Positions 182-17,071 of a DNA stretch of 26,182 nucleotides are shown here, in pieces. Position 1 is the first letter of the stretch. Each line of letters opens with the position of its first letter. The notes under the pieces are model-generated. The model was not told the origin of the DNA and made no database searches. It saw only the letters and a program-made list of their open reading frames with translations. The DNA is taken from UHGV virus genome UHGV-2131677; one strand, 5' to 3'. Origin of the DNA: a virus. The position numbers were made by a program, and so were the translations under genes.

Positions 182-946
182 TTATGCTGCTGCGGGGATC
201 AACTGCGCCTGACGCAGTCGTTCCACAGCAACATCAAAATAGTGCGGGCTTGTCTCGATGCCGATGAATTTGCAGCCTGCTTTCAGTGCAGCTACGCCCG
301 TGGTTCCCGAACCCATGAACGGGTCAAGGATTGTGCCGCCGTCGCCTGCTGTCCTGACCAACTCTGCCATCAGCTCTTCCGGTTTTCCGGTCGGATGCAG
401 TTTCTTTTGTGGTTTAACCTGGTGTGTCATGCAGCCGTCAAACGGGCCGTTCGGGGATTTACCCAGATGACCTTTGCTGCCCCAGACCATGAATTCGCAC
501 TGATGCCGGAAATACCCGGTGTGAGGCGCTCGCGCCGCCCTTCCTTTGTTCCAGACAACAATGCCGCGCCAGGTAAAGCCACTGACCTGAAAAGCATCGG
601 TCAGGGCGGGTAATTGTCGCCAGTCGGAAAATACCAGAGCATACCCTCCCGGCCTGACGGCGTGGTATGCCTGCATCATCCACAACTGCATCCAGTATGC
701 CCATGAATGGGCATCCATGTTTTCACCTGCGAAGCCCTCAAAGTGATGAAGACTCTCATCGTTTAGATATTTTGCGTGGCTGCCCTGGCAGGTGCGTCCG
801 GCTTTGTGTGTCGCGCCGGAACTGTAGGGTGGGTCGGTGATGAGCGCGTCCACACTGTCCGGCTCAATATGTGGCAATACTGTCAGTGCGTCGCCGCAGT
901 ACAGACGGGTGTTTTCGGTTACGATGCGTTGTTGAAATCCGGTCAA
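182..946 (-). CDS. DNA N6-adenine (or N4-cytosine) methyltransferase, beta-class
   Basis: Translation has catalytic motif IV (ALITDPPY) N-terminal to AdoMet motif I (ILDPFMGSGTTGVAA), the beta-class order. Start uncertain: TTG at 946 preceded by GGAG at 8 nt is preferred; GTG at 1000 overlapping the ogr stop (GTGA) is the alternative but adds an odd hydrophobic N-terminus. Confidence 0.85.
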   Translation of the reverse strand: MTGFQQRIVTENTRLYCGDALTVLPHIEPDSVDALITDPPYSSGATHKAGRTCQGSHAKYLNDESLHHFEGFAGENMDAHSWAYWMQLWMMQAYHAVRPGGYALVFSDWRQLPALTDAFQVSGFTWRGIVVWNKGRAARAPHTGYFRHQCEFMVWGSKGHLGKSPNGPFDGCMTHQVKPQKKLHPTGKPEELMAELVRTAGDGGTILDPFMGSGTTGVAALKAGCKFIGIETSPHYFDVAVERLRQAQLIPAAA

Positions 947-996
947 AGATAAAACTCCAGAATCAAAAGAATACAGAAACAAAAACAGGCATGTGC

Positions 997-1254
997 TCAC
1001 ATTACCGGAAACGGCAGTGACAACTGCGCATCACCCCGGTGAGACGCAGGCAGGCTTTGCCACGGAATATCCTGTGAAGTGCTGCCATAACGTTTAACCG
1101 TGAGTTTGTCGAAACTCTCCAGCGTCGAGAAGGAGAGACTGCATTCCGGGTTGTTGCACTGGCAGAGTTTCCAGCGGACAGTTCCGGTATCGTTCGCGGC
1201 GCGACTGGTGCGGGTGCGTGTGCTCGCACCACAAAAAGGACACGGAAAAGACAC
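997..1254 (-). CDS. ogr: Ogr/Delta-family zinc-finger late transcription activator
   Basis: CPFC...RTSR...CQCNNPEC...FSTLES matches the P2 Ogr Cys4 pattern (CPLC...RTSR...CQNVNC...FITYES). Start placed at GTG 1252-1254 with AAGGAGG 8 nt upstream, which puts the first Cys near the N-terminus as in Ogr. Confidence 0.8.
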   Translation of the reverse strand: MSFPCPFCGASTRTRTSRAANDTGTVRWKLCQCNNPECSLSFSTLESFDKLTVKRYGSTSQDIPWQSLPASHRGDAQLSLPFPVM

Positions 1255-1304
1255 GACGAAGACCTCCTTTTTCGTGAAGGCGAATCGTCGTGATTTTATT
1301 CCGG

Positions 1305-2438
1305 TTATTCCTGTTGTGCTATCCATTCAGGAATTTTTAATTCCATCTCAAGCCGCGTGGTGAAGCCGCTGTCGTCGATGTTGTGCTCCACCTTCGCCAG
1401 CACCCAGTCTTCCGCGTCGATGTCGCTCTTGAAACCGGATACCGTGCCGCGCATTTCGGGGTACAGGTCGGGGCGACCGCGTGCCAGTGTGATGGAGAAC
1501 TCAGCCGCACCGCGCTGTAGCTGCTGCCACTTTGCCGCAGCGGCACGGCGTGCGGCCTCCTCGTTTTTGAAGGTTTGGCGCATGACGTACACATTGCCGT
1601 CTGCGCCCTCCATGTAATCCCCCTCGCGGCTGCTGCTTTTCTCCTTTTTTGTTTTTTGGGCAGAACCACGTTTCTTCACGCTGACTTTTTTCTTTTTGCC
1701 ATAGTCCAGGTCCAGCCAGTAAGCTCGTACCCCCGTGTACGCCTGCCGGTCTGCAATGCGGAAGTGATGGCTGTCACCGCTGCTGCGGGTGATGGCGAAT
1801 GAGGGCAGCGGCTTTCCGCTGGCGCTCACCCCCTGTCCGGGCACGATGAAAAGCAGTGCGCCGTTCTTGACGGTGGCGATTGCTCCCAGCATGTCTGCCA
1901 TACGCGTGAGGAACGAGATGTCGCTTTCCTCCGTCTGGTCGGCGTGGTCGATTTCCAGCCCTGCCAGTGAGGCGCTGATTTGCGCTTTCAGCCCGTAGCG
2001 GTACGCGATGGCAGAAACAACCTGTCCCACCGTCACGTCATGCCAGGACACTTCACGCTTCACGTTGAACTCCTGGCGGAAGTCTGCGCTGCTGGCCGTA
2101 ATGGTGAGTCTGTCCGGCGGTCCCTCGTGTGTCACCTCGTCAACGATGAACGCTCCCTTGTCCGTCAGCGCCTCACCTTTCCAGCCCAGCGCCAGCCCCA
2201 GCTTCTGCCCTCGCTTCGGGAGACGCACGCCGCCGTCGCTGTCGTCAATCGTGAGGGTTAACTGGTCTGCCTCAAATCCCCGGTTGTCGGTCATTGCCAG
2301 CGAGATGACCCGTCGGGTTAACGCCTCGTTTTCCTCTTTTTTTCCGGTTTCCGCGTTGTCAGTTGTGACGGAAAAATCCGGTATCTTCACGCACTCTGCC
2401 AGCCCGGCGAGGTATCCGTTAATGCCCGAAAAGTTCAT
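1305..2438 (-). CDS. D: Tail protein D (late control gene D family)
   Basis: Full-length similarity to P2 gpD recalled from memory; start ATG at 2436-2438 (MNFSGINGY) with GGAG 8 nt upstream; contains an internal Lys-rich insertion. Confidence 0.9.
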   Translation of the reverse strand: MNFSGINGYLAGLAECVKIPDFSVTTDNAETGKKEENEALTRRVISLAMTDNRGFEADQLTLTIDDSDGGVRLPKRGQKLGLALGWKGEALTDKGAFIVDEVTHEGPPDRLTITASSADFRQEFNVKREVSWHDVTVGQVVSAIAYRYGLKAQISASLAGLEIDHADQTEESDISFLTRMADMLGAIATVKNGALLFIVPGQGVSASGKPLPSFAITRSSGDSHHFRIADRQAYTGVRAYWLDLDYGKKKKVSVKKRGSAQKTKKEKSSSREGDYMEGADGNVYVMRQTFKNEEAARRAAAAKWQQLQRGAAEFSITLARGRPDLYPEMRGTVSGFKSDIDAEDWVLAKVEHNIDDSGFTTRLEMELKIPEWIAQQE

Positions 2439-2601
2439 CCCGCTTTCTCCGTCTGTGTCTTCGTCCTGCAAATCATTTCACACACGCGAAATACACCGCG
2501 AGCCGCGCATGTTGTAGGAGAGCGGCGAGAAGGGGCGGCGCGTGAATGTCGGGGTGTTTTTCGGGAGGATAGTGCCACAGAAAAAACACCAGGAGGTGCT
2601 C

Positions 2602-3783
2602 ATGAGTGAAACACGCTTTCACGGCGCACGCGTCAAAGAAAACACCGACCTCGTGACCGCGATTAATGACATTGATTCCAGTGTCATCGGTATCGTGGCT
2701 ACGGCGGACGATGCAGACAGCGACGCGTTCCCGTTAAACAGGCCCGTACTGATCACCCGCGTGGTGAATGTGCTGGGTAAGGCAGGCACAACAGGCACGC
2801 TGTACAAAACGCTCAAGGCGATTTCCGACCAGACCAGCCCGAAGGTTATCGTGGTGCGTGTGGCAGAAGCCGGAGAGGAAGGTGAGACACAGGACCAGCT
2901 TGTCATCGGTGGTTCGCAGGCTGACGGCAGCTACACGGGCATGTATGCCCTGCTGGTTGCCGAACAGGATGAGAGCATTGGTTACCGCCCGCGTATTCTG
3001 GCGGCTCCCGGCCTTGATACCGAAGCTGTCACATCTGCCCTGTGCGTCATTGCGGACAAGCTCCGCGCCTTTGTGTACGCCGGATGTAACGGCTGTGACA
3101 CGATGGCGGAGGCAATCACTTACCGCGCTAAGTTCTCCGCGCGTGAGCTGATGCTGCTGTGGCCTGACTTCATTGCCTACAACCCGGTGAGCGGAAATAA
3201 CGAAACATTTCCGGCTGCGGCGTATGCGTGCGGGTTGCGTGCGCGGATTGACAGTGAGCAGGGCTGGCACAAGTCACTGTCCAACGTGGCGCTGAAAAAT
3301 GTGCTCGGTATGTCGCAGCAGGTGTTCTGGTCTTTGCAGGCTGAAGACAGTGATGCGAACAACCTGAACAACAAGGAAATCACCACGATTATTCGCCGTA
3401 ACGGCTTCCGCTTCTGGGGGAACCGTACTGCCGAAACCAGCGACTACATCTTTGAGGTGTACACGCGCACAGCGCAGATTCTGGCAGATACCATCGCTGA
3501 GGCGCAGTTCGAAACCATTGACGAACCGCTGACCCCGGCGAACGTGAAGGACGTGATTAGCGCCATCCGCGCAAAACTCAATGCCCTGGTCACCGCCGGA
3601 AAACTTATCGGTGCGGAGTGCTGGTATGACGTGCTGGACAACGGCACGACGGATTTACGTCAGGGGCGCGTGCGTATCCGCTACAAGTACACACCAGTGC
3701 CGCCGATGGAAGACCTGACGCTGTACCAGACCTTCACGGATGAGTATTTCGACTCCGCTTTTGCAACGCTGGGAGGTGCGTAA
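2602..3783 (+). CDS. FI: Contractile tail sheath protein FI
   Basis: Strong collinear similarity to P2 gpFI (e.g. RAKIDxEQGWHKxLSNV, IRRxGFRFWGNRT, YxYTPVPPxExLTL); ATG 2602 with AGGAGG upstream. Confidence 0.95.
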   Translation: MSETRFHGARVKENTDLVTAINDIDSSVIGIVATADDADSDAFPLNRPVLITRVVNVLGKAGTTGTLYKTLKAISDQTSPKVIVVRVAEAGEEGETQDQLVIGGSQADGSYTGMYALLVAEQDESIGYRPRILAAPGLDTEAVTSALCVIADKLRAFVYAGCNGCDTMAEAITYRAKFSARELMLLWPDFIAYNPVSGNNETFPAAAYACGLRARIDSEQGWHKSLSNVALKNVLGMSQQVFWSLQAEDSDANNLNNKEITTIIRRNGFRFWGNRTAETSDYIFEVYTRTAQILADTIAEAQFETIDEPLTPANVKDVISAIRAKLNALVTAGKLIGAECWYDVLDNGTTDLRQGRVRIRYKYTPVPPMEDLTLYQTFTDEYFDSAFATLGGA

Positions 3784-4299
3784 ATGGCTGTACCACGTTA
3801 CGTTCGCCAGTTCACGCTGTTTGTGAACGGCAAAAACAAAATCGGCACGGTGACAGGCGTCACTCTGCCTAAACTGACCCGAAAAACCGAAGCCTATCGC
3901 GGTGGCGGGATGCTGGGTGCGGTGCATATTGACCTCGGACTGGATGACGGCGCACTGGATGCCTCATTCACCACCGGCGGTGTTGAAAAAGAGTTGCTCC
4001 AGGAATACGCCACTGACATTAACGAAGTGGCGCTGCGCTTTGTGGGTGAGCTGTTCACCGATGGTGAGGAAAGTCAGCTCCTTGAGGTGGAGATGCGCGG
4101 ACGCATCACGGAAATCGACCGTGGCGAAACCAAACAGGGCGACACCACACAGTACACCTTCGCCGTCAAAAACACCTACTACAAGGAGTCGGTGGATGAC
4201 AGCGATGTGACAGAAATCGACCTGCTGAACTTCATCTACAAAAAAGACGGCCAGAACGTCTTTGGTGACCGCGTGAGTTCGGCGCTCGGTCTGAACTGA
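3784..4299 (+). CDS. FII: Tail tube protein FII
   Basis: Similarity to P2 gpFII (LPKLTRKxExYRGxGM, DLGLDDxAL); start ATG abuts the FI stop (TAAATG). Confidence 0.95.
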   Translation: MAVPRYVRQFTLFVNGKNKIGTVTGVTLPKLTRKTEAYRGGGMLGAVHIDLGLDDGALDASFTTGGVEKELLQEYATDINEVALRFVGELFTDGEESQLLEVEMRGRITEIDRGETKQGDTTQYTFAVKNTYYKESVDDSDVTEIDLLNFIYKKDGQNVFGDRVSSALGLN

Positions 4300-4311
4300 C
4301 AGTATTAACAG

Positions 4312-4330
4312 GGCGGCACGCCGTGCCGCC
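4312..4330 (+). other. GC-rich inverted repeat (GGCGGCACG C CGTGCCGCC) in the FII-E intergenic spacer; possible mRNA stem-loop
   Basis: Perfect 9-bp inverted repeat read directly; no following T-run, so not a canonical terminator. Confidence 0.4.
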
Positions 4331-4344
4331 ACAGGAGAAAGAAA

Positions 4345-4728
4345 ATGGCAGCAAAGAAAGATGACATCATGAACGACGACATCATTGCAGAGGACACCGC
4401 TGTGGAAAGCGCAGAGACCGCAGGGGAAAAAACGGGTGTGCAGTTATCCTGCCCGGTGGTGCGTGGCGAGCGCGTTATTGACTTCGTGGAGATTGGCGAG
4501 GAAATTCGTCAGGCAGGTTCACTGCGCGGCCTGTCGCTGATTGAGGTGCTGAACCTCAAAACAGACCCGGTGATGACGCTGCTTTCACGCGTGACCACAC
4601 CACGCCTGAAGCTGGCAGAAATTCAGTCACTGTCCACCGGTGATTTCGTGGCGCTGGCTACTCTGGTGGCGAATTTTTTGGCTCCCACGGAGTCTGCGAA
4701 ACCGTCCGTGGCGGTGACGGAAGCGTGA
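4345..4728 (+). CDS. E: Tail assembly chaperone E
   Basis: Position after FII, size (127 aa), acidic N-terminus, and slippery heptamer near its 3' end as in P2 gene E. Confidence 0.85.
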   Translation: MAAKKDDIMNDDIIAEDTAVESAETAGEKTGVQLSCPVVRGERVIDFVEIGEEIRQAGSLRGLSLIEVLNLKTDPVMTLLSRVTTPRLKLAEIQSLSTGDFVALATLVANFLAPTESAKPSVAVTEA

Positions 4729-4892
4729 TCACGCTGGCGAAGTTCGACCACGTTGAAGAACTGATCGCCGATATTGCAGTCGTGTTTAACTGGTCGCCCG
4801 GCGAGATATTCTCAATGCCTCTCGTCGAGGTGATGAGCTGGCGTGAGCGGGTGGCGCAACGTAGCGGAGTCCGCAACAGTGAAATCCCTTGA
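4345..4892 (+). CDS. E': Tail assembly chaperone E+E', product of a programmed -1 translational frameshift at TTTTTTG (4674-4680)
   Basis: Slippery heptamer T TTT TTG in the E frame; the -1 frame is open from 4680 to the TGA at 4890-4892 and encodes ...GSVITLAKFDHVEELIADIAVVFNWSPGEIFSMPL...WRER..., matching the conserved P2 E' extension. Confidence 0.7.
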
Positions 4893-7800
4893 TATTCGTG
4901 TCAGTTTTGGCGCAATCGACCGGCTGACACGTCCGACCGAAAACGCCCGCCGTCAGGTGGGCGCTCTCACTGAATCCCTTCAGAATACGCAGAACAACAT
5001 ACAGGCGCTCGACAGGCAGTCCAAGGTGTTCGAACGTGCCGCCGGAAATCTCAGTAAATACCGCGAACAGATTGCCCGCGCGGAGCAGAGGCTCGCCGGG
5101 CTGCGAAAGGCAGAGCAGGACGGCAAAAACCTCTCTGAAAAGCAGCGGGAGATGATGACGGCGCTGTCTGCACGTCTTGAGCGCCTGAACGAGCTGCGCA
5201 CGCGCGAACGCGAAAAACTTCAGGCGGCGGCAGGGGAAATGCGCAGACACGGCATTCTGCTTTCCGGTAGCAGCCGGACCATCGAAAGTGCCGTTCGCCG
5301 CACACAGCAGTACAACGAGCAGCTCGAGCGCGAACGGCAGGTGCTGGCTCGCGTGACGCAGGCACAGAACCGCTATGAGGCCGCGAAGGCTCAGGCGGAA
5401 AAACTGCGCAACACAGGGGCTGTGGCGATGGCGGCGGGTACAGGTGGCCTGTATGCGGCGCAGCGCATGATGGCTCCGGCGATGGAATCCGAACAGCACG
5501 GCGCGGTTATCGCTGCCGGTTCGGGGGAAGGCGCAGAGGATGGCGCACGTTACACTCACATCATCCGTAACATACAGGCTGACGGTCTCGCTGATTTTGC
5601 CGGTGCTGCGGAGGCCGTGAGTGCGGTACGCAGCACGCTCGGTGCGCTGGGCGACACCGGCGACCGGGAACTGGAGCGCATCAGTCGTCGTGCGCTGGAT
5701 ATGCAGACCGTCTTTGGTGTTGATGTGCCGCAGAGCATTCAGGCCGCTGCCATCATGATGAAGAACGGGCTGGCTGCCAGCAGTGACGAGGCTACTAACC
5801 TGATGACGGCAGGGATGCAGCGTATGTCCGCTGAAATGCGCGATGAACTGCCGGAAATTCTGCACGAGTATTCCACCCACTTCCGCAACATGGGCTTCAC
5901 CGGCAGCGAGACAATGAGTCTGCTGGTTGAGATGGCAAAGCAGGGCAAGTTTGCTCTGGATAAAACCGGCGATGCCGTGAAGGAGTTCAGCATCCGGGGT
6001 TCGGATATGTCGAAATCCAGTGTCTCAGCGTATGAGACACTCGGCCTGAATGCCGAACGGGTGTCTGCTGCCATTGCACAGGGGGGCGGCAACGCACGTC
6101 AGGCGATGCAGGTGACCGCCCGTGCACTGCTGGCCATCCGTGACCCGGCAGAGCGGGCGAACACGGCCATTGCGCTGTTCGGCACACCCGTTGAAGACCT
6201 CTCCGTTGACCAGATCCCGCGGTTCTTAAAGGCGCTGGCCGATGTCCGTGACAACCTGGGCGATGTCAGCGGCGTGGCAGACCGCATGGGGCAGACGCTG
6301 CGCGGTAATCTTTCCGGCGATGTTCAGGCCCTGAGTGGTGCGTTCTCAGGGCTACGCACGGACATCTTCGGCACAGTGACGGAGGATTTGCGCGGGCTGG
6401 TTCAGACGGTGAGCGCGTGGGTAACCCGGATGCGCGAATGGGTCGGAGAGCATCAGGCGCTGGTCAGAGTTCTGGTGCTGACCGGCGGGAGTGTTCTGGC
6501 GCTGTCTTCCACGTTCGGTGCGCTGTCGCTGACGCTCGGGCTGATTGCGGGGCCGCTGGCAAAACTGCAACTGGGGCTGGGACTGCTGACGGGGGGCGGC
6601 GGCATTGGTGGTGCTGTCCGGCTTGTGTCCGCGCTGGCACTGCGCCTGACGGGGCTGCCTGCGCTGTGGGCGCTGGTCACGGGGGCGGTGTCGGTACTGG
6701 GTGGCGCACTGGGTGCGCTGTTCAGTCCGGTCGGGCTGATCGTTGCCGCCCTGGTGGGCGGCGCGGTTCTGGTGTTGAAATACTGGGATCAGATCAGCGC
6801 GTTTTTTTCCGGCTTTTTTGCCGGAGTGTGGGAGGCGCTGCAACCGCTGCGGGAAGCCTTTGCATCGCTGGCTCCGGTGTTCGGGCTGATTGGTGACGGC
6901 ATCAAAGCCGCGTGGGAGTGGTTCACCCGCCTGCTTGAACCTGCAAACGCCTCAAAAGAGACGCTCGACAAATGTACCAGTGCAGGGGAGTCGTTCGGGA
7001 AAACGCTGGGGTGGGTCATTCAGAACATTGTGCTGGGGCCGCTGACGCTGCTCCTTGATGGCCTCGGTACCGTGCTGAAGTGGCTGGGTGTCATCCCGGA
7101 CGGCATCAAAGAGGCACAGAAGGAGACGCAAAAACTCCAGGAGAGCGCCGCAAAACAGTCCACACAAAAAGCGCCGGTTGCGTGGGAGTGGGATCCTGCA
7201 CAGAAAAAAATGGTGCAGAAAACATGGTCGTGGTCATCAGATGCAGCGGAAAACAACGGTGACAATAAACCTGCCCCTGCTGTTCCCGGAGAGGTGAGGG
7301 GAACGGCGGACAATCCGGTCGGCAAACCCGGCAGCAAATCCCCGCTGGATGAGGCATGGTTCCGGCAGGGGATACAGAAAACCGCCAACAATACAGGCGG
7401 GCTTCTTGAGGAAACACGCAGGCGCGTCGGTCCCGGCGATATTATTTTCAAAAATCTGCCCGGCCCCGAAATCATTCACGACGAGTGGAAAGCACCGCAG
7501 GTTATCCGGACAGTGCAGGCGGTATCGGCGGGCGGAGGAGTGGTGGATGCGCTGACAACGCTCTGGCAGAAACTCACCGGAAGACAGACTGCTTCACCCG
7601 TACCGGCCGTGAATATTCCTGCGCCGGTGGCGAATGTGGCGCATCAGGTGTCCGCACTGCCGCAGCCGCGTAACGTGACGGAGGGTATGACTGGTGCGGT
7701 GATGGCTTCCGCTCCCGTCGCGGAGGCTATCCGGCCCCCGTTGCGACCGGAATCGGCCAGAAGGGAAGCTGCGCCACAACCGCAGGCTGCTGCGTTTTCC

Positions 7801-7938
7801 GGTGAGATACATGTACATCTGCACAACGTCAACACACAGAATCCGCGCGAACTGGCAAAACTGGTTGGAGAGGCTGTCCGCGAAGAGATGCGCAGACAGG
7901 CGCGTACAGGCATGAACAGCTTCCGCGACAGGGACTAA
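4843..7938 (+). CDS. T: Tail tape measure protein T
   Basis: About 1030 aa, coiled-coil N-terminal part, long Gly/Ala/Leu-rich hydrophobic tract, located between E/E' and U. Start ambiguous: GTG 4843 (GAGGTGA upstream) or GTG 4879 (GGAG upstream). Confidence 0.9.
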   Translation: MSGWRNVAESATVKSLDIRVSFGAIDRLTRPTENARRQVGALTESLQNTQNNIQALDRQSKVFERAAGNLSKYREQIARAEQRLAGLRKAEQDGKNLSEKQREMMTALSARLERLNELRTREREKLQAAAGEMRRHGILLSGSSRTIESAVRRTQQYNEQLERERQVLARVTQAQNRYEAAKAQAEKLRNTGAVAMAAGTGGLYAAQRMMAPAMESEQHGAVIAAGSGEGAEDGARYTHIIRNIQADGLADFAGAAEAVSAVRSTLGALGDTGDRELERISRRALDMQTVFGVDVPQSIQAAAIMMKNGLAASSDEATNLMTAGMQRMSAEMRDELPEILHEYSTHFRNMGFTGSETMSLLVEMAKQGKFALDKTGDAVKEFSIRGSDMSKSSVSAYETLGLNAERVSAAIAQGGGNARQAMQVTARALLAIRDPAERANTAIALFGTPVEDLSVDQIPRFLKALADVRDNLGDVSGVADRMGQTLRGNLSGDVQALSGAFSGLRTDIFGTVTEDLRGLVQTVSAWVTRMREWVGEHQALVRVLVLTGGSVLALSSTFGALSLTLGLIAGPLAKLQLGLGLLTGGGGIGGAVRLVSALALRLTGLPALWALVTGAVSVLGGALGALFSPVGLIVAALVGGAVLVLKYWDQISAFFSGFFAGVWEALQPLREAFASLAPVFGLIGDGIKAAWEWFTRLLEPANASKETLDKCTSAGESFGKTLGWVIQNIVLGPLTLLLDGLGTVLKWLGVIPDGIKEAQKETQKLQESAAKQSTQKAPVAWEWDPAQKKMVQKTWSWSSDAAENNGDNKPAPAVPGEVRGTADNPVGKPGSKSPLDEAWFRQGIQKTANNTGGLLEETRRRVGPGDIIFKNLPGPEIIHDEWKAPQVIRTVQAVSAGGGVVDALTTLWQKLTGRQTASPVPAVNIPAPVANVAHQVSALPQPRNVTEGMTGAVMASAPVAEAIRPPLRPESARREAAPQPQAAAFSGEIHVHLHNVNTQNPRELAKLVGEAVREEMRRQARTGMNSFRDRD

Positions 7939-7951
7939 AGGAGACACAATT

Positions 7952-8410
7952 ATGATGATGATTTTCGGCATGTTTGTGTTTGAACTGAAAACACTGCCGC
8001 ATCAGCAGATCCAGCAGAGCAAAACATGGCGACATGTGAAAAATGAGCGCATAAACCGCTCTGCGGCCTGGCAGTATATCGGCGCAGGTGATGATCAGAT
8101 CACGCTGTCCGGTTTGCTGTACCCGGAAATTACCGGTGGTGAGGTGTCACTGACACTGCTGAACACTCAGGCCTACACCGGATGTCCCTGGCCGCTGATT
8201 GATGGCACGGGGCAGATTTACGGAATGTACGTGATTACGGGATTACAGACCACCCGCTCCGAACTGGATCGTTACGGAAAGGCAAAAAAGATTGAGTTTT
8301 CTGTCAGTTTTCAGCGGTGTGATGAGGATATGAGGGAGAAACTTCAGTCAGCTTCTGCGGGTGAATTACTGAACACGCTTAAAGACAAAATGGCGACAGC
8401 GGCATTCTGA
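7952..8410 (+). CDS. U: Tail protein U
   Basis: MMMIFGMFVFELKTLPHQQ... resembles the P2 gpU N-terminus (MMMVLGLFVF...), ...ITLSGLLYPEITGG...; AAGGAG upstream of ATG. Confidence 0.9.
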   Translation: MMMIFGMFVFELKTLPHQQIQQSKTWRHVKNERINRSAAWQYIGAGDDQITLSGLLYPEITGGEVSLTLLNTQAYTGCPWPLIDGTGQIYGMYVITGLQTTRSELDRYGKAKKIEFSVSFQRCDEDMREKLQSASAGELLNTLKDKMATAAF

Positions 8411-8420
8411 ATAAAAAGAA

Positions 8421-8441
8421 GGGAGTGTAAAAAACACTCCC
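8421..8441 (-). terminator. Hairpin terminator (GGGAGTGT-AAAAA-ACACTCCC), T-run on the minus-strand side
   Basis: Perfect 8-bp stem read directly; flanked by aaaaagaa on the plus strand, which is a U-tract on the minus strand; may also act weakly for the plus-strand U transcript. Confidence 0.5.
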
Positions 8442-8470
8442 TTATACCCGTTATGGAAGAAAAGCAAATG

Positions 8471-8498
8471 TTGTCAATACATTCTCACTATATATAAA
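8471..8498 (+). promoter_or_regulatory. Candidate sigma70 promoter (TTGTCA - 16 bp - TATAAA) inside the AT-rich island
   Basis: Hexamers read directly; AT-rich context makes chance matches likely. Confidence 0.25.
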
Positions 8499-8532
8499 TC
8501 GCCCGATGAAGGCAATGGTGATATTCGGGAAA

Positions 8533-8556
8533 TAAAAAAGCCCTCATAAAGAGGGC
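8533..8556 (-). terminator. Rho-independent terminator (GCCCTC-ATAAA-GAGGGC followed by a U-run on the minus strand)
   Basis: Stem plus aaaaaa immediately 5' on the plus strand, which is a T6 run 3' of the hairpin on the minus strand. Confidence 0.55.
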
Positions 8557-8586
8557 AACATGCATTGTGTGAAGATTTAAAGTTCT

Positions 8587-8721
8587 ATGTTCCGGAAGGG
8601 ATTATATTGGGTTGGCGTTATTGAAACAATATTTTTAATTATTATCGTCATCGATGAAAATGTTTCCTGCGATTTTGTTGCTCTGATTACAATTTTGTCT
8701 GTTACTGTATCTTTGTGGTAA
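8587..8721 (+). CDS. Candidate small hydrophobic peptide (44 aa, MFRKGLYWVGVIETIFLIIIVIDENVSCDFVALITILSVTVSLW); possible type I toxin-like membrane peptide
   Basis: Hand translation of the plus strand; two hydrophobic segments; weak RBS; below the 60-aa cut-off of the supplied ORF track; could be a chance ORF in AT-rich DNA. Confidence 0.2.
   Translation: MFRKGLYWVGVIETIFLIIIVIDENVSCDFVALITILSVTVSLW
8601..8629 (-). promoter_or_regulatory. Candidate minus-strand promoter (TTGTTT - 17 bp - TATAAT) that would drive a roughly 60-nt antisense RNA ending at the 8533-8556 terminator
   Basis: Perfect TATAAT (reverse complement of 8601-8606) with a TTG-containing -35 at 8624-8629; AT-rich context. 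Confidence 0.25.
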
Positions 8722-8744
8722 AAAAAAGCCCGCACGGGGCGGGC
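8720..8744 (-). terminator. Rho-independent terminator of the minus-strand tail-fibre operon (GCCCGC-ACGG-GGCGGGC followed by U8)
   Basis: Hairpin at 8728-8744 with an A8 run at 8720-8727 on the plus strand, which is a U-tract after the stem on the minus strand; 45 nt downstream of the G stop. Confidence 0.65.
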
Positions 8745-8788
8745 AAAGAATGTTTGCATGTGTATAACGCTGCGGGATTATAAATATA

Positions 8789-9352
8789 TTATGCCTTCTG
8801 TAAACCCCCCTTTGATGGCGATTCAGGCCATACCAGCGCATTGTAACAATCTTCATCAGTCACGGAAGTGAACGTCATCTGCTGAAGTTCCTTAATGTAT
8901 TCAATCCACGCAGCCAGGCTTCCTCTGTCTTCATCACTGATAGTGCCAAGCAACAACTCAGACTGCCAGATGCTGACTCTCTCTTTTGCCTCCGACAGCA
9001 GGATGTTTCGTTGTGATTCCGCTTTAGTCTGCCACTCCTCAGGAGACAATATACGGCGAACAATACTCTCACCGTCAAATATCCAGTTACCGTTAATATC
9101 TACGCCATCAGGCAGGCTTTCTGTTTCCGCCACTGATGCCCCCACAGGCCAGAGCGCTGAAACGTCATTTGATATGCTGACGATAATATTATTACTGTCA
9201 TAGACTACTTTTACTGTGTTCTCAGAAAACTGTTTCTGACATTCATACCAGTCATTACCGTTTTCATCCTGAAGGAATAAAACTCCAGCATCAATAAGCT
9301 CTCTTTTATCTTCTCCCGGCGTGTAGGAAGTGAAGTTTTTAAAATTATTCAT
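8789..9352 (-). CDS. G: Tail fibre assembly protein (chaperone)
   Basis: Immediately downstream of tail fibre gene H; start ATG 9350-9352 (MNNFKNF...) with AGGAGG upstream; size and position typical of Tfa/gpG. Confidence 0.85.
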   Translation of the reverse strand: MNNFKNFTSYTPGEDKRELIDAGVLFLQDENGNDWYECQKQFSENTVKVVYDSNNIIVSISNDVSALWPVGASVAETESLPDGVDINGNWIFDGESIVRRILSPEEWQTKAESQRNILLSEAKERVSIWQSELLLGTISDEDRGSLAAWIEYIKELQQMTFTSVTDEDCYNALVWPESPSKGGLQKA

Positions 9353-9366
9353 ATACTGCCTCCTTT

Positions 9367-12300
9367 TTATACTGATGCTGCTGTGTACCAGGTTCCGTTG
9401 ATACAATATTGGACGGGTCTGTAATAAACGCCCGCTATATTATCGGCAGAGTTGGACCCTGTATCCTGAACATTAATACCAGACAATACATGACCTGACG
9501 GGCACTGGAAATTCCATGTTTGCCAGTTGTTTACTCCATGATATTGCTGTGAACCAAGTCGAACATCTTTCACATAACGGGAATCAAAGTTACCGTAATC
9601 CGAGGGGTTAACACGCCCTGTAATATTTATGGTTTTATTACTTTGAATGCTGTCGGAGACAAAGCGCATAACATGGACGTTATTAGCATAAACGTCCAGA
9701 TTACCGTCGCCATTTTGTTTAAAGCCCGTGTCATTATCACCCAAAACAATCGAGTTACCGCCAAGAGCACTGGATGTTCCGATACCCAGTGCACCATTCA
9801 ATTGACCACCAGATAACGACAGTGCACCGACATCTCCCGCTGTAGGTTTTCGCGTTGTGGTATAAAACTCAGACCAGTCAGCCTCGAATCCGTAACCGTC
9901 ACGAGCAGAACGATAAAAAATACCGCCGTTATTATAATTAACGCGGAACTGGGCGGCGGGACAACTTCCTTCACCGATATTAAAATGAAGAATTAACGTT
10001 GATGCCCCACCAATAGTTGCGTTATAGGCTCCGCTACTCCAGTTCCATCCAACGGCTTTATCATTCGCAACGGTATCTCCTGTTTTTCCTGAAGCAAATG
10101 CACCAATATTTTTCGGCGTCAGGTTAATATCTGATGTTCCATCAAACGAAACGGAATTAATCTTTCTCGCGGTTTTCAGCTTTGTAGCCGTTGAGGCATT
10201 GCCGGACAGCTCACCAGAAAGGCCAGCACTGAATGTCTGTTTCGCGCCCCATGTCTGGGCTTCGTCGATAATTGGCACACGTCTTGCTGTGATCGTGCGG
10301 CTTCCCGGATTTCCTGAAATACGCACCATAAAAAAGCGGTAGTTGGCTTTACTTACAGTGCTGCGCCATACATGCATTGAGCGTCCCGTACCGGTATCAT
10401 CACTTGGGCCAACAGCGATGTTTATCAGGTTGCCATCAATAACGCCCCAGTCCATACCGTCGGGAATATTGGTCATGTTATCCAGCCGAACGGTTATCAG
10501 ACTGCCCGGCACAAAGTCGTAGGTCTGCCAGTCCAGGCTGGTGAGTTTTGCTGCTGCGCCACCGATACCCAGATTCAGGGGAAGTGAATACGAGGTGTAG
10601 ACTTCCCGCCATTCGCTCCATGAGCTGGCGGTATAGACTCGTTCATATGAGCGACCTTTCGTTGTCGTTCCTGTCCCTGTTGTGGTATAGCGTTGCAATA
10701 CGGCAACGTAATCAAAACGTCTGATAACCTCTAACACCCCTAGTAGTGTTGCACCGGATGAATCCAGCAATGGACCATTGCTCGCTTTACCCGTCACACT
10801 GTAAATACCAGGGTCGGTTAGATCATTCAAATCACCGTCATAAAAGCTGCTTGCAGTCTGGCTGCCGATTCTCAGCCACGGTTCCCACTGTGGGTTTGAT
10901 GCATCCCAGTTTGCAGCAAGGCAGCGGACATACATGTTCCCACGGCGAGTGGTATAACGCTGGGTATAACTGAATCCACCACCTTTCAGAACTTCAAGCA
11001 CCCCCTGCGCGTAACTACCAGCTTCTGGATAGTGCAACGCAAGAGAAGCTAACGTACTGGAACTGTTTCTCCATGTACCCAGGTTATCCTCCCCGGCCAG
11101 AAAATCGAGATCCATACTGTCATCCAGCGTTCTGGCCGTCCCCTGAACGTTACGCCATACGCTCCACGGACCGTCTGAACCATTCCATGTGCCAGAAAGG
11201 TTGCGCATATAAACATTGCCTGTTCTGGTGGTATAACGCTGCATTCCTGAAAAATTACCGCCATTGAATACCTCAAGAACACCGACTGCACCATCTTCAG
11301 GGAAATTTTTCTCAAGTGTTGCGTTGGTGGATGTGGATTTATACCAGACACCCACATAAGCCTTAACAGGACCAAACGTATTCAGATCAGCATCAACCGG
11401 CATTTCGCCGTTGTTTTTCATAAACGTCAGGCTGGTGACGCCAAGATTGTCACGGAATACGGATGCGTCAGGAATATCAGCGCCATTCGACGCTTTTTGC
11501 AAAGCCCCTTCCGCATAGTCGATAGTGTTGTTCAGTCCGAGGTACTGAATCACTGCTGCGACGGAGCTTTTGGCAAGAATATTGCGCCCCACCGCGGTTA
11601 TATCGGTCAGTGCAGCTGTGTCTGTGCTGGTGAAATAAGGCAGTTTGTTTGCGCCCGTAGCAAGCCTCGCCAGTGAGGTTAGCGTTGCATCAAGAGGCTG
11701 TTTGCCTGCCAGTGCATTGTTCATTGTTGTCGCAAAATTAGGGTCATCACCAAGTGCGGCTGCAAGTTCATTGAGCGTATCCAGCGCCCCCGGTGATGAG
11801 TCAACCAGGGCGGCAATGGCTGCGCGGACATAGGCCGTGTTGGCTATCTGCGTGTTGTTTGTGCCCTGTGCCGCAGTCGGTGCTGTCGGCGTGCCCGTCA
11901 GCGCCGGACTTTTGAGTGGCGCTTTTGTGTCATTAAGAGTCTTGATCGCTTTTGGCGTTGCTGCCACCGACTCGCTGTCGCTGTCCGTTGCACTGCTTAG
12001 CTGCGTGAAGCCCTTTTGCGTCAGTGAGGCATCCGGGTGACGGCGGGACTGCTCGTGCTCTGCAAGTTTGTCATCCACATAGTCCTGCGTTGCCATAATG
12101 GTTGTGCTGTCCACAGACAGGCTCACGGAATTAACGTCACTGATGATAATAATCATGCGACAGGTCATGGCGCGCCCGGAGCCTTCCGTGAGCAGGGGCT
12201 TGTAGCTTTCCGCCATGCTGGCAACCGCAATCAGTGTACCGGAGTTGTCATACAGCCCCAGCTCACGCATCCAGAAGCCACCAACTTCCGGCGGAATAAC

Positions 12301-12534
12301 CAGTTCCGCAATCACCTGATTCGGTGCTTTACTGTTTTGCGTGACTTTATTCAGCGCACCGCGCCAGACCTCATGAATCAGGGTCGTCTGTGAGGCTGAC
12401 GGTTCTGTCAGCACCCCGTCACCATCCCCCACGGCCATATGTGTGAGATTGACTTTCTGGCCCGATGTTGTAGTGGCTGCGGCCAGTTTTGCCGCACCGG
12501 CAGTTGTGATCACGGTTTTAAATCTGATGCTCAT
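9367..12534 (-). CDS. H: Tail fibre protein H (expanded, 1055 aa)
   Basis: N-terminal 300 aa closely resemble P2 gpH (MSIRFKTVITTAGAAKLAAA..., IAELVIPPEVGGFWMRELGLYD..., MATQDYVDDKLAEHEQSRRHPDASLT...); C-terminus ...INGTWYTAASV as in P2 H. Confidence 0.9.
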   Translation of the reverse strand: MSIRFKTVITTAGAAKLAAATTTSGQKVNLTHMAVGDGDGVLTEPSASQTTLIHEVWRGALNKVTQNSKAPNQVIAELVIPPEVGGFWMRELGLYDNSGTLIAVASMAESYKPLLTEGSGRAMTCRMIIIISDVNSVSLSVDSTTIMATQDYVDDKLAEHEQSRRHPDASLTQKGFTQLSSATDSDSESVAATPKAIKTLNDTKAPLKSPALTGTPTAPTAAQGTNNTQIANTAYVRAAIAALVDSSPGALDTLNELAAALGDDPNFATTMNNALAGKQPLDATLTSLARLATGANKLPYFTSTDTAALTDITAVGRNILAKSSVAAVIQYLGLNNTIDYAEGALQKASNGADIPDASVFRDNLGVTSLTFMKNNGEMPVDADLNTFGPVKAYVGVWYKSTSTNATLEKNFPEDGAVGVLEVFNGGNFSGMQRYTTRTGNVYMRNLSGTWNGSDGPWSVWRNVQGTARTLDDSMDLDFLAGEDNLGTWRNSSSTLASLALHYPEAGSYAQGVLEVLKGGGFSYTQRYTTRRGNMYVRCLAANWDASNPQWEPWLRIGSQTASSFYDGDLNDLTDPGIYSVTGKASNGPLLDSSGATLLGVLEVIRRFDYVAVLQRYTTTGTGTTTKGRSYERVYTASSWSEWREVYTSYSLPLNLGIGGAAAKLTSLDWQTYDFVPGSLITVRLDNMTNIPDGMDWGVIDGNLINIAVGPSDDTGTGRSMHVWRSTVSKANYRFFMVRISGNPGSRTITARRVPIIDEAQTWGAKQTFSAGLSGELSGNASTATKLKTARKINSVSFDGTSDINLTPKNIGAFASGKTGDTVANDKAVGWNWSSGAYNATIGGASTLILHFNIGEGSCPAAQFRVNYNNGGIFYRSARDGYGFEADWSEFYTTTRKPTAGDVGALSLSGGQLNGALGIGTSSALGGNSIVLGDNDTGFKQNGDGNLDVYANNVHVMRFVSDSIQSNKTINITGRVNPSDYGNFDSRYVKDVRLGSQQYHGVNNWQTWNFQCPSGHVLSGINVQDTGSNSADNIAGVYYRPVQYCINGTWYTAASV
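10596..11292 (-). repeat. Three tandem copies of a domain of about 45-50 aa (about 270-bp period) inside tail fibre H
   Basis: Protein repeats GVLEV-x-GG-FS-x-QRYTTR-GN-Y-R at about aa 417, 510 and 599; recurring DNA motif ggtggtataacgctg near 11230, 10950 and 10680. Confidence 0.6.
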
Positions 12535-14315: not shown

Positions 14316-14893
14316 TGCGGGCCTCCTGTGGTGTCGCCGCCGCTCTTCACGCCACTGTGTTTGTGCGTGTGCAGCGTCACTCCGTTGGAGGTGAAATCAC
14401 CGCCGCTGTGCGAGATATTGCCGCTCAGGGTTCCGCCTTCTGTCACCTCAAACGTTGCCGCTTTCAGATGGTTTGTGCAGATGACGGTGGGGGTGTCCAG
14501 CGTCACGCCCGTTCCGGCCTGAATGGTGGCGGTTCTGATTCCGGTGGCGCTCAGCGCGCCTGCGTCCGCATCGTAGCGGAACACAGCACCGTCAGGCGCT
14601 GTAACCACGATTTCCTTCAGGCTGCTGCCGGGTGCAGGATGTTCGCTGCTCCAGAGACTGCCGATGACGGTGGCAGTTACGGGGTCTCCATTGATACAGG
14701 CAATCATGACCTGTTCGCCCACGGCAGGCGGCAGCCAGACGCTGAACGCGCCCGCGCGTGGTGTGTTCCAGCGCAGCCAGTCGGTTTCCAGCTCTCCGCT
14801 GCGCACGCGAACGCGCCACGTGGTTTCGTCCACGGCAAAAATCACGCCCGTGCGGATGATGTTTGCAAGCAGCCGCATGATTTCCGCTGTCAT
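14312..14893 (-). CDS. V: Baseplate spike/hub protein V
   Basis: 193 aa, gpV-like with C-terminal His-rich tip (LHTHKHSG); ATGA overlap with the S stop. Confidence 0.9.
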   Translation of the reverse strand: MTAEIMRLLANIIRTGVIFAVDETTWRVRVRSGELETDWLRWNTPRAGAFSVWLPPAVGEQVMIACINGDPVTATVIGSLWSSEHPAPGSSLKEIVVTAPDGAVFRYDADAGALSATGIRTATIQAGTGVTLDTPTVICTNHLKAATFEVTEGGTLSGNISHSGGDFTSNGVTLHTHKHSGVKSGGDTTGGPQ

Positions 14894-16532: not shown

Positions 16533-17071
16533 TTCTGTTTCTCCACATCCCGCAGACACCAGGCGCGAAAATCGCTGCGGCGGTTAACCAGTCCCTGACT
16601 GCGCTTCCCGCCCGCATTCACAAAATCCGTGAGGCGGGTGCACATCAGCGCCCAGTTATGCGTCTGTGCCTGTTTCCAGATGGTGGTGCGCTGGCGCTTT
16701 CCGTTGTGGTCCTTAAACCACATCAGGCCGGAACAGCCCAGATTGAAGGCCGCGTCCGTCATCGCTTCGAAGGCCGACTGCGGCATGGCTGCTCCCTGAA
16801 AATTCTGGTTAATGCAGTTCTCCGCCCGCTGCATGTCATTCACCCAGCGACGGGCCACCTCCTGCTCGCTGTACAGGTGTTTCTGTACGTTTCCCGTGGA
16901 GCCGCAGCCCACGGTGGCAACACCCGCGATGTCCGTGTAGGGTGTGGCGCGGCAGTCTTCCCACGTGGCAATTTTTATCTGTGCCTCCTGTGAGGTGCGC
17001 AGTGCTTCGGGAGCCAGCGAGACACCCAGCGCCACAATCACGGCGGCGGCATATCGCTTAATGTTTTTCAT
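16529..17071 (-). CDS. Endolysin, T4/lambda-R-type lysozyme with N-terminal signal-anchor-release (SAR) or signal sequence
   Basis: Catalytic signature E...D...T in WEDCRATPYTDIAGVATVGCGSTG and P1 Lyz-like block AENCINQNFQGAAMPQSAFEAMTDAAFNLGC; N-terminus MKNIKRYAAAVIVALGVSLA is hydrophobic. Confidence 0.85.
   Translation of the reverse strand: MKNIKRYAAAVIVALGVSLAPEALRTSQEAQIKIATWEDCRATPYTDIAGVATVGCGSTGNVQKHLYSEQEVARRWVNDMQRAENCINQNFQGAAMPQSAFEAMTDAAFNLGCSGLMWFKDHNGKRQRTTIWKQAQTHNWALMCTRLTDFVNAGGKRSQGLVNRRSDFRAWCLRDVEKQK

Follow-up and report, generated by a model that had tools for sequence, protein, structure and literature searches.

Inverted FI-U tail block as the fixed gene order of P88-type P2-like prophages

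Gene order in described P2-like phages and in the window

In P2, the F operon consists of FI-FII-E-E'-T-U-D and the late promoters share the dyad TGT-N12-ACA (PMC3931495). Phages of the P2/L-413C/186 type (Peduovirus, Eganvirus), together with Kapieceevirus and Aptresvirus, carry FI-FII-E-E'-T-U-D-ogr as one co-directional unit after G, with D overlapping U. P88 and other members of Xuanwuvirus are organized differently: V, W, J, I, H, and G read one way, U, T, E', E, FII, and FI read the other way, and D and ogr read the first way again, with a spacer of ~157 bp between FI and D that holds a central TCT-N12-ACA dyad. The inverted block and divergent FI and D genes are also found in phiT5282H (Enterobacter, Novemvirus), 3LV2017 (Klebsiella, Reginaelenavirus), ST16-OXA48phi5.4 (Klebsiella, Reipivirus), and Serratia phage KSP20, and both P88 and phiSM are viable phages (PMC5285337, PMC6456863). 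In the literature searched, we found no statement that P88-type phages carry an inverted tail block; a paper on a Burkholderia P2-like phage reports the opposite strand for a methylase only.

The window, the whole 26,182-nucleotide stretch of viral DNA analysed here (UHGV-2131677), is a Peduoviridae (P2-like) prophage of the P88-type clade. It holds the P2-like gene set, namely the portal gene Q, terminase gene P, scaffold gene O, and capsid gene N together with R, S, V, W, J, I, H, G, FI, FII, E/E', T, U, D, and ogr, each detected above curated cutoffs in Pfam and PHROGs. Methylase, ogr, and D are on the minus strand, FI-FII-E/E'-T-U on the plus strand, and G-H-I-J-W-V on the minus strand (Table 1), so the strands and gene identities on which the original prediction of an inverted FI-U block was built hold up. 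Like the P2/L-413C/186-type phages, Kapieceevirus, and Aptresvirus, the window has the same gene set, the E/E' slippery site, and the Ogr activator, but its D is split off and diverges from FI. Frameshift reconstruction recovered the programmed -1 frameshift of P2 E/E', with TTTTTTG at 4674-4680, a -1 frame running to 4892, and a T start at 4879. The canonical F operon, co-directional after G with D abutting U, is not present: 163 bp separate D from FI, which is on the other strand, and U is convergent with G. The order instead agrees with the P88-type layout, in which V to G run one way, U to FI the other, and D and ogr the first way, with an FI-D spacer of 150-160 bp.

Similarity to P88 is uneven, with amino acid identities of 85% for FI, 76% for U, and 71% for D but just 37-40% for T and E. 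Against phiT5282H, 3LV2017, ST16-OXA48phi5.4, and KSP20, FI was 69-79% and D 65-70% identical, and the U/G cargo differed; phiT5282H further resembles the window in its short convergent U/G spacer and its D-ogr array. At the DNA level, the megablast match of P88 to the window was confined to the fibre gene, and protein identities ranged from 37% to 85%. ICTV genera are delimited in practice at roughly 70% genome-wide nucleotide identity, and the window probably belongs to a genus other than Xuanwuvirus. The fibre gene H showed 86-91% nucleotide identity to P2-type fibre genes across 9386-11451.

The methylase is the final gene of a D-ogr-methylase array at the prophage end, a position of variable cargo where a related locus (L111) and P88 have a hok/gef gene in its place. 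The gene for gpD is the part of the F operon that is split from the remainder in the window. Some gene callers start Ogr at 1254 (85 aa), and both 109-aa and 85-aa calls occur in identical loci. The flanks of identical loci carry copA-like, ybaP-like, ybaK-like, and ushA-like genes, which suggest an enterobacterium as host.

Table 1. Features of the window, with positions counted from its first nucleotide
Feature	Position	Strand	Evidence or remark
N6/N4 DNA methyltransferase, Dam-like	182-1000	minus	PHROG_67 7.6e-73, PF01555
Ogr/Delta-family zinc-finger late activator	997-1326	minus	PF04606, E=1.5e-11, above curated cutoff
gpD, tail/baseplate hub, 'late control D'	1305-2438	minus	PHROG_52 5e-149; PF05954 in identical loci
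FI-D divergent spacer, proposed bidirectional late promoter region	2439-2601		163 bp; conserved blocks over 76 distinct relatives' spacers
D-proximal conserved block CGCGTGTGTGAAATGAT, candidate D-promoter core (-10 region)	2472-2488	minus	~44 nt from dyad centre
TGT-N12-AGA dyad TGTAGGAGAGCGGCGAGA, candidate shared Ogr box	2513-2530		central in FI-D spacer
FI-proximal A/T block GAGGATAGT, candidate -10 region of PF	2565-2573	plus	~48 nt from dyad centre; conserved alignment columns
FI, tail sheath	2602-3783	plus	PHROG_23 1e-126; 85% aa identity to P88 FI
FII, tail tube	3784-4299	plus	PHROG_55; PF04985 Phage_tube in identical loci
E	4369-4728	plus	PHROG_103
E+E' (-1 frameshift product)	4369-4892	plus	TTTTTTG slip site 4674-4680; PF06528 on E' ORF in identical loci
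T, tape measure, 1019 aa	4879-7938	plus	PHROG_28 7e-110; PF10145 and gene call in L110
U, tail protein, final gene of inverted block	7952-8410	plus	PF06995 8e-40, PHROG_76
Convergent U/G spacer, AT-rich	8411-8788		378 bp; GC 0.36 vs 0.56 whole window
Hairpin, 10-bp stem	8419-8443		9 nt past U stop codon; -17.5 kcal/mol, z = -4.7
Terminator-like hairpin, then T6	8540-8556	minus	
GC hairpin, then T8	8728-8744	minus	just past G stop codon; candidate terminator of G-containing late transcript
G, tail fibre assembly chaperone	8789-9352	minus	PHROG_136 1e-59; PF02413 and gene call in L110
H, tail fibre	9367-12534	minus	PHROG_454, PHROG_381
I, J, W, V, S, R	beyond H	minus	
O start	20962		
Perfect TGT-N12-ACA dyad	21031-21048		centre of divergent P-O spacer 20963-21113
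P start	21114		

Distribution and origin of the inverted order

The departure from P2 order had been put down to a segmental inversion of ~6.3 kb, a lineage-specific arrangement, or an assembly artefact. Misorientation of the 6.3-kb block during contig joining has nothing in its favor except that departure, and we leave it virtually no chance because nine independent assemblies, two of them complete chromosomes, are collinear over both junctions. Public assemblies contain the exact FI protein in 236 blocks, and the eight loci with an identical FI protein that were read, the complete chromosomes CP080260.1 and CP068818.1 among them, all share one order and are collinear at both junctions at 92-100% nucleotide identity; a further locus, L016, matched the U-G junction at 86%. 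The same order recurred in ~90 related viral or genomic contigs and in the sequenced viable phages.

Using tblastn, we detected FI and D matches on opposite strands and ~200 bp apart in P88, 500465-2, P884B11, phiSM, PhiR44_2, Chuche, phiT5282H, Klebsiella phages, and KSP20. The inverted layout was present in every related locus with a D at least 53% identical (92/92); the locus counts came from a D search of viral contigs, whose best 80 matches all belonged to the inverted clade, and from genome contigs searched with D alone, which yielded 14 loci. Annotated records with the full inverted layout represent four ICTV Peduoviridae genera (Xuanwuvirus with P88, Novemvirus, Reginaelenavirus, and Reipivirus), and the clade also takes in prophages of Salmonella, Citrobacter, Klebsiella, Edwardsiella, and Providencia. 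Canonical P2 order was found in relatives with D at most ~52% identical, namely two distant loci and four annotated genera, this side of the comparison being six taxa picked from the phage collection. The co-directional order G-FI-FII-E-E'-T-U-D-ogr that had served as reference was seen in the annotated Yersinia phage L-413C (Peduovirus), SEN1, ST512-KPC3phi13.2, and Mana. The flipped block is thus the inherited, fixed gene order of the whole P88-type clade, and the outcome that the original prediction had set against itself, an orientation normal in related genomes, is what all 92 loci and the four genera display. Of its three options, the lineage-specific arrangement is the one that stood and the artefact was ruled out; the segmental inversion survives in part, as one probable ancestral event and not as an event in this genome.

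A strain-specific recent inversion, or a phase-variable segment that a site-specific recombinase inverts, would fit with the Gin/Cin-type DNA invertase that lies right at the G/U junction in some clade members (P88, 520873). In P88, however, the invertase repeats found by our inverted-repeat search (23822-23886 and 26862-26926) flank the tail-fibre segment, not the FI-U block. The same search over 900-9500 of the window recovered no inverted repeats pairing 2439-2601 with 8411-8788, this interval contained no ORF of invertase size, and no recombinase was found among the window ORFs scanned against PHROGs or Pfam; the original prediction had likewise noted neither inverted repeats at the junctions nor an invertase gene. 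More than 100 related loci were all in one orientation, and the divergence of the junction regions parallels that of the genes. The flanking inverted repeats, adjacent invertase, and pair of orientations that mark Gin/Cin/Hin-type invertible segments are therefore all missing here, and a recent or switchable inversion is highly improbable.

The inverted set was monophyletic, with the window inside it, in neighbor-joining (NJ) trees of both D and FI (bootstrap 100/100 each), which were simple trees with just six canonical taxa. Because of this monophyly, one ancient inversion in the ancestor shared by the clade would account best for the order, one breakpoint lying between G and the PF activator site and the other between U and D. 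Recombination of two different P2-like phages could instead have assembled the layout by module replacement, as the likeness of the block to P88 changes in mosaic fashion from gene to gene (FI 85%, U 76%, FII 64%, T 37%, and E 40% identical) and the fibre genes have clearly been swapped horizontally. Against such replacement, D and FI return the same monophyletic inverted clade, the dyad-to-FI distance equals that of Kapieceevirus and SEN1 (two of the four canonical relatives checked), and one event suffices for an inversion. We consider module replacement improbable, though it and a single inversion are formally inseparable on present evidence.

The FI-D spacer and a candidate shared Ogr box

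Late promoters that depend on Ogr or Delta have a dyad centred near -55 from the start site. The window encodes a cognate zinc-finger activator (PF04606), and its FI-D spacer contains a dyad one mismatch off the TGT-N12-ACA consensus (AGA for ACA). From the centre of this dyad, the FI start codon is 80.5 nt away and the D start codon 83.5 nt. Of the 76 unique FI-D spacers of relatives, 75 have one T[G/C]T-N12-ACA dyad at the homologous site, against a background expectation of 0.1 per spacer. The right half-site ACA was invariant among these, the left half-site was TCT rather than TGT in 51 of the 75, and the N12 was variable (44 variants, 42% mean identity). Dyad centres lay 80-88 nt from the FI ATG and 40-83 nt from the D ATG, with a median of 69 nt for the latter that is exceeded in the window. 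Over the whole window, plain TGT-N12-ACA was not enriched (6 matches vs 6.8 expected), and with one mismatch allowed there were 138 matches vs 123 expected; the motif count is uninformative, so only position and cross-species conservation carry weight.

To either side of the dyad, the spacer alignment is conserved in blocks. The D-proximal block, with alignment consensus CGCGCGCATGAAACCAT conserved at 75-90% or more, may be the -10 element of a D promoter, and the FI-proximal block may be the -10 region of PF. No sigma-70 consensus site was found in the FI-D spacer. We checked four canonical relatives: in Kapieceevirus and SEN1 a matching dyad precedes FI by 78-81 nt, in L-413C and Mana the sequence at this place resembles a dyad only imperfectly, and upstream of D all four lack one. 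This pattern suggests that the PF activator site, a TGT-N12-ACA-type Ogr box and itself a dyad, moved along with FI and after the inversion came to lie directly upstream of D. A lone Ogr-bound site in the middle of the ~155-bp spacer would then drive two divergent late promoters, PF for FI to U and a new PD for D and then ogr and the methylase. From spacer sequence and its conservation, we infer that one Ogr box serves both.

The divergent P and O operons provide an internal comparator for this arrangement. All 25 unique P-O spacers, drawn from 80 related loci, contained one central dyad, at a distance of 73-76 nt to the P start codon and 77-90 nt to the O start codon. As in the FI-D spacer, the P2-like PP and PO late promoters have a lone central dyad between divergent late operons, at similar distances to both start codons, and in Smp131 one palindrome has been assigned to both PP' and PO' (PMC3931495). 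The P-O arrangement is ancestral and universal, whereas the FI/D version is confined to the inverted clade, where it is known from sequence. The FI-D and P-O dyads of the window are alike at 13 of 18 positions, a likeness that was noticed post hoc; the resulting 13-position motif has 0-mismatch matches at those two sites only, but it was derived from the two dyads and is therefore not independent evidence. The single dyad between P and O appears to act like the one between FI and D.

D may alternatively be under a separate constitutive or early promoter, with the conserved dyad serving PF only. The frequent TCT left half-site, the looser spacing of the dyad to D than to FI, and the place of ogr after D are all consistent with this, and P2 ogr has its own earlier expression. 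The lack of a sigma-70 consensus speaks against it, as do the requirement for D, a structural tail protein, late in infection and the conserved D-proximal block, whose offset of ~41-48 nt from the dyad centre equals that of the O-proximal CATCATGA block in the P-O spacer. We regard a separate D promoter as unlikely and lean towards a shared site: the Ogr-box dyad would work either way, such that one inversion kept PF intact and gave D a ready activator site, with one Ogr complex co-activating both late promoters as at P/O. The original concern that D had lost its F-operon promoter may be answered by this conserved activator-type dyad, an answer read from sequence and not from a mapped promoter. 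We found no description of a shared divergent Ogr site for the P88-type clade in the literature searched.

The U-G junction and the meaning of the inverted order

U and G converge across an AT-rich island, in agreement with the original prediction. The hairpin nearest U has a T-run on the minus strand only, is preceded by an A-run on the plus strand, and is a possible end of the F transcript that could act as a two-way terminator. The F transcript would head towards the G-containing late transcript, and both would stop within this AT-rich spacer with its many terminator hairpins. An Rfam search of the U-G spacer returned nothing near the threshold of any family. A 60-aa ORF at 8577-8759 is probably not a gene; it has no Pfam match and spans a terminator hairpin. 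The contents of the junction vary across the clade: P88 carries an invertible fibre segment with a DNA invertase (and hok for the methylase), ST16-OXA48phi5.4 a DUF262 gene, and phiT5282H nothing, whereas the window has only the 378-bp spacer. The U/G spacer thus also appears to be a cargo hotspot.

We are confident that the explanation as a whole, which joins a clade-wide inherited order, one old inversion, promoter logic based on a shared Ogr box, and convergent transcript ends, is the best one for this locus. The window is a member of the already known P88-type arrangement, and with the inverted order being clade-wide, P2 is the wrong standard for gene order in these phages. When the FI-U block of an Enterobacterales P2-like prophage is flipped, this is a clade marker rather than an error or a rearrangement event, which is useful for annotation and quality control. 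The clade also illustrates that the P2 late regulon tolerates a split of the F operon, D appearing to have gained late control from the palindromic activator site of FI. If this is true, the FI-D spacer would be a natural case in which an activator site that works in either orientation allowed the split of an operon to be tolerated.

Gene order in the window and its relatives

ORF mapping and profile searches bore out every gene call of the original prediction, and together with the gene order of relatives they confirm its observation that the FI-FII-E/E'-T-U block is inverted. FI and D diverge across a 163-bp spacer, and U and G converge across an AT-rich spacer of 378 bp (GC 0.36), both as predicted. 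A renewed search of the junctions and the block likewise found no inverted repeat pairing the two junctions and no invertase gene within the block or at its junctions. Beyond H, the genes I, J, W, V, S, and R and the head genes continue on the minus strand, while P and Q lie on the plus strand, divergent from O.

Features of the inverted block, its flanks, and its junctions
Feature	Position	Strand	Basis or remark
Dam-like methylase (N6/N4)	182-1000	minus	ORF map, profile search
Ogr/Delta zinc-finger gene	997-1326	minus	ORF map, profile search
D	1305-2438	minus	ORF map, profile search
FI-side conserved block			A/T block; alignment
D-side conserved block			CGCGCGCATGAAACCAT; alignment
FI	2602-3783	plus	ORF map, profile search
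FII	3784-4299	plus	ORF map, profile search
E	4369-4728	plus	slip site TTTTTTG 4674-4680
E'	-1 frame, through 4892	plus	frame after TTTTTTG slip site in E
T	4879-7938	plus	ORF map, profile search
U	7952-8410	plus	ORF map, profile search
Strong hairpin	8419-8443		9 nt after U; -17.5 kcal/mol
Hairpin and T-run	8540-8556	minus
Hairpin and T-run	8728-8744	minus	directly after G
G	8789-9352	minus	ORF map, profile search
H	9367-12534	minus	ORF map, profile search

The co-directional order taken as canonical in the original prediction, G-FI-FII-E-E'-T-U-D-ogr, is present in the annotated records of L-413C (Peduovirus), SEN1 (Eganvirus), ST512-KPC3phi13.2 (Kapieceevirus), and Mana (Aptresvirus), in agreement with a published operon description (PMC3931495). 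The nearest phages by protein were the Xuanwuvirus members P88, 500465-2, P884B11, phiSM, PhiR44_2, and Chuche, along with Enterobacter phiT5282H, Klebsiella 3LV2017 and ST16-OXA48phi5.4, and Serratia KSP20; throughout this set, D matched on the strand opposite to FI, some 200 bp away from it. Annotated relatives from four ICTV genera carry V-W-J-I-H-G one way, U-T-E'-E-FII-FI the other way, and D(-ogr) the first way again. Searching 14 genomic loci and the best 80 IMG/VR contigs with the window's proteins (tblastn), we detected the inverted layout in all 92 loci whose D was at least 53% identical; the only two co-directional loci, from Methyloversatilis (D 42%) and Roseospira (D 33%), were both distant. 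The layout is thus not peculiar to the window, and the lineage-specific arrangement offered among the original options is correct. This gene order is already in many deposited genomes, though we found no paper commenting on it in the searchable literature library.

Three of the related records showed irregularities. The Trabulsiella odontotermitis record (NZ_JNGH01000101.1) places I and H on the strand of U through FI, with a J fragment at a distance of 10 kb and an interrupted D; either the locus has been rearranged once more or the prophage is degraded. A 226-kb contig titled Vagococcus sp. WN89Y (NZ_JBQPOM010000071.1) carries a P88-type prophage with an FI 84% identical to ours, and this assembly, labelled as a Gram-positive organism, is probably contaminated or mislabelled. 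Product names in Citrobacter phage Shae_phiSM (OR565851.1) seem displaced by one gene: the feature under the FI match is labelled 'late control gene D protein' and that under the D match 'ogr'.

Origin of the inverted layout

The exact FI protein occurs in 236 blocks of public assemblies. All eight of the loci we read, including the complete chromosomes CP080260.1 and CP068818.1, have methylase, ogr, and D on the minus strand, FI through U on the plus strand, and G and H on the minus strand, with both junction regions collinear at 92-100% identity; in an IMG/VR relative, L016, identity was 98% at the FI-D junction and 86% at the U-G junction. The same order and collinear junctions in independent assemblies rule out both an assembly artefact, as the original prediction had allowed, and a recent inversion. 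Because P88 and phiSM are plaque-forming phages (PMC5285337, PMC6456863), the inverted layout is functional.

Segmental inversion, another of the original options, fails as an in-place event in this genome and would be an older one. Inverted genomes formed one clade in neighbor-joining trees of both D and FI, with the most distant locus as root, in 100 of 100 bootstraps against a small canonical sample of six taxa and by a simple tree method. Within the clade, identities go down to 52-60%, a range that overlaps with the highest ones between inverted and canonical genomes (56-58%). The simplest reading is a single old inversion, or recombination to equivalent effect, in an ancestor whose clade today covers several genera of Enterobacterales phages. 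P88 has invertase repeats around its fibre segment only, so they give no support for an invertase as the maker of the big inversion.

Cargo and mosaicism

The AT-rich U/G spacer (8411-8788) contains three terminator-like hairpins and no match to an Rfam family. A 60-aa minus-strand ORF (8577-8759), with no Pfam match, spans one hairpin, and a near-consensus sigma-70-like site (TTTACA-16-TATAAT, 8804-8777, minus strand) is directed into the spacer; a small transcript may arise here. Cargo at this junction differs among relatives, with an invertible fibre segment and invertase in P88 and 520873, a DUF262 gene in ST16-OXA48phi5.4, and nothing in phiT5282H. The G/FI junction of P2 is a cargo hotspot, and this variation suggests that the U/G junction acts like it.

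At the DNA level, the window matched the phage collection in the tail-fibre gene only, with no match in the rest: the C-terminal part of H (9386-11451) is 86-91% identical to coliphage (P2-type) and Yersinia phage fibre genes. GC falls to 0.42-0.49 over 8500-11500, and the fibre and chaperone module looks horizontally exchanged. T is only 37% identical to its P88 counterpart, compared with 85% for FI and 76% for U on its flanks; its length ranges from 1019 to 1155 aa among related prophages L104-L111, which are otherwise 92-100% identical, and the only tandem repeat found in it is a short one (7704-7745).

At the end of the prophage, beside a host copA-like gene, the methylase gene shares bases with the stop codon of ogr; it is missing from P88 and the related locus L111, both of which have a hok/gef gene in its place. 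A DUF3800 gene (24464-25270, plus) lies in a low-GC island (0.42-0.47; low-GC stretch 24001-25500) between the portal gene Q and stbB-like/parM-like partition genes (25502-26177, minus), and is probably cargo adjoining cos.

A candidate Ogr box shared by FI and D

We found no sigma-70 consensus site in the FI-D spacer. Its centre is TGTAGGAGAGCGGCGAGA (2513-2530), one mismatch from TGT-N12-ACA, an element common to P2-type late promoters (PMC3931495). Taken alone, this dyad carries no significance, as the window shows no enrichment of the motif; comparison with relatives makes it significant. Exactly one T[G/C]T-N12-ACA dyad occurs at the homologous place in 75 of 76 distinct FI-D spacers of relatives (chance expectation, 0.1 per spacer); its centre falls 80-88 nt from the start codon of FI, and at a median distance of 69 nt from that of D. 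In these dyads the right half-site never varies and is mostly extended to ACAACA, and the inner 12-mers comprise 44 different sequences with a mean identity of 42%; conserved half-sites around a free inner spacer are the signature of a protein-binding dyad. On either side, at about 41-49 nt from the dyad centre, lies a further conserved block.

The window has one other divergent late region, the P-O spacer (20963-21113). Exactly at its midpoint stands a mismatch-free TGT-N12-ACA (21031-21048), which agrees with the FI-D dyad at 13 of 18 positions. The 80 relatives yielded 25 distinct P-O spacers, each with a single central dyad in the same geometry. Two further perfect sites (16705-16722 and 17657-17674) fall within coding regions, upstream in the late array of the minus strand. 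A 4-nt overlap of S and V (14890-14893) leaves no intergenic space where a separate PV promoter like that of P2 could sit.

Of the four canonical relatives, two (Kapieceevirus and SEN1) show a matching dyad 78-81 nt ahead of FI, and the other two (L-413C and Mana) show only imperfect dyad-like sequences at that place. In all four, D overlaps U and is preceded by no dyad. Taken together, the conserved FI-D, P-O, and canonical FI-upstream dyads suggest that PF, the late promoter of the F operon, and its candidate Ogr box travelled together with FI. As a dyad, the box may now also serve a D-ward late promoter. Late start sites would then be predicted about 50-60 nt to each side of 2521, near 2465-2470 towards D and near 2575-2580 towards FI, both dependent on Ogr. 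It is plausible on these comparisons that a shared Ogr box restored late expression of D. This apparent sharing is the one point beyond routine; it is conserved, easily testable, and of modest interest.
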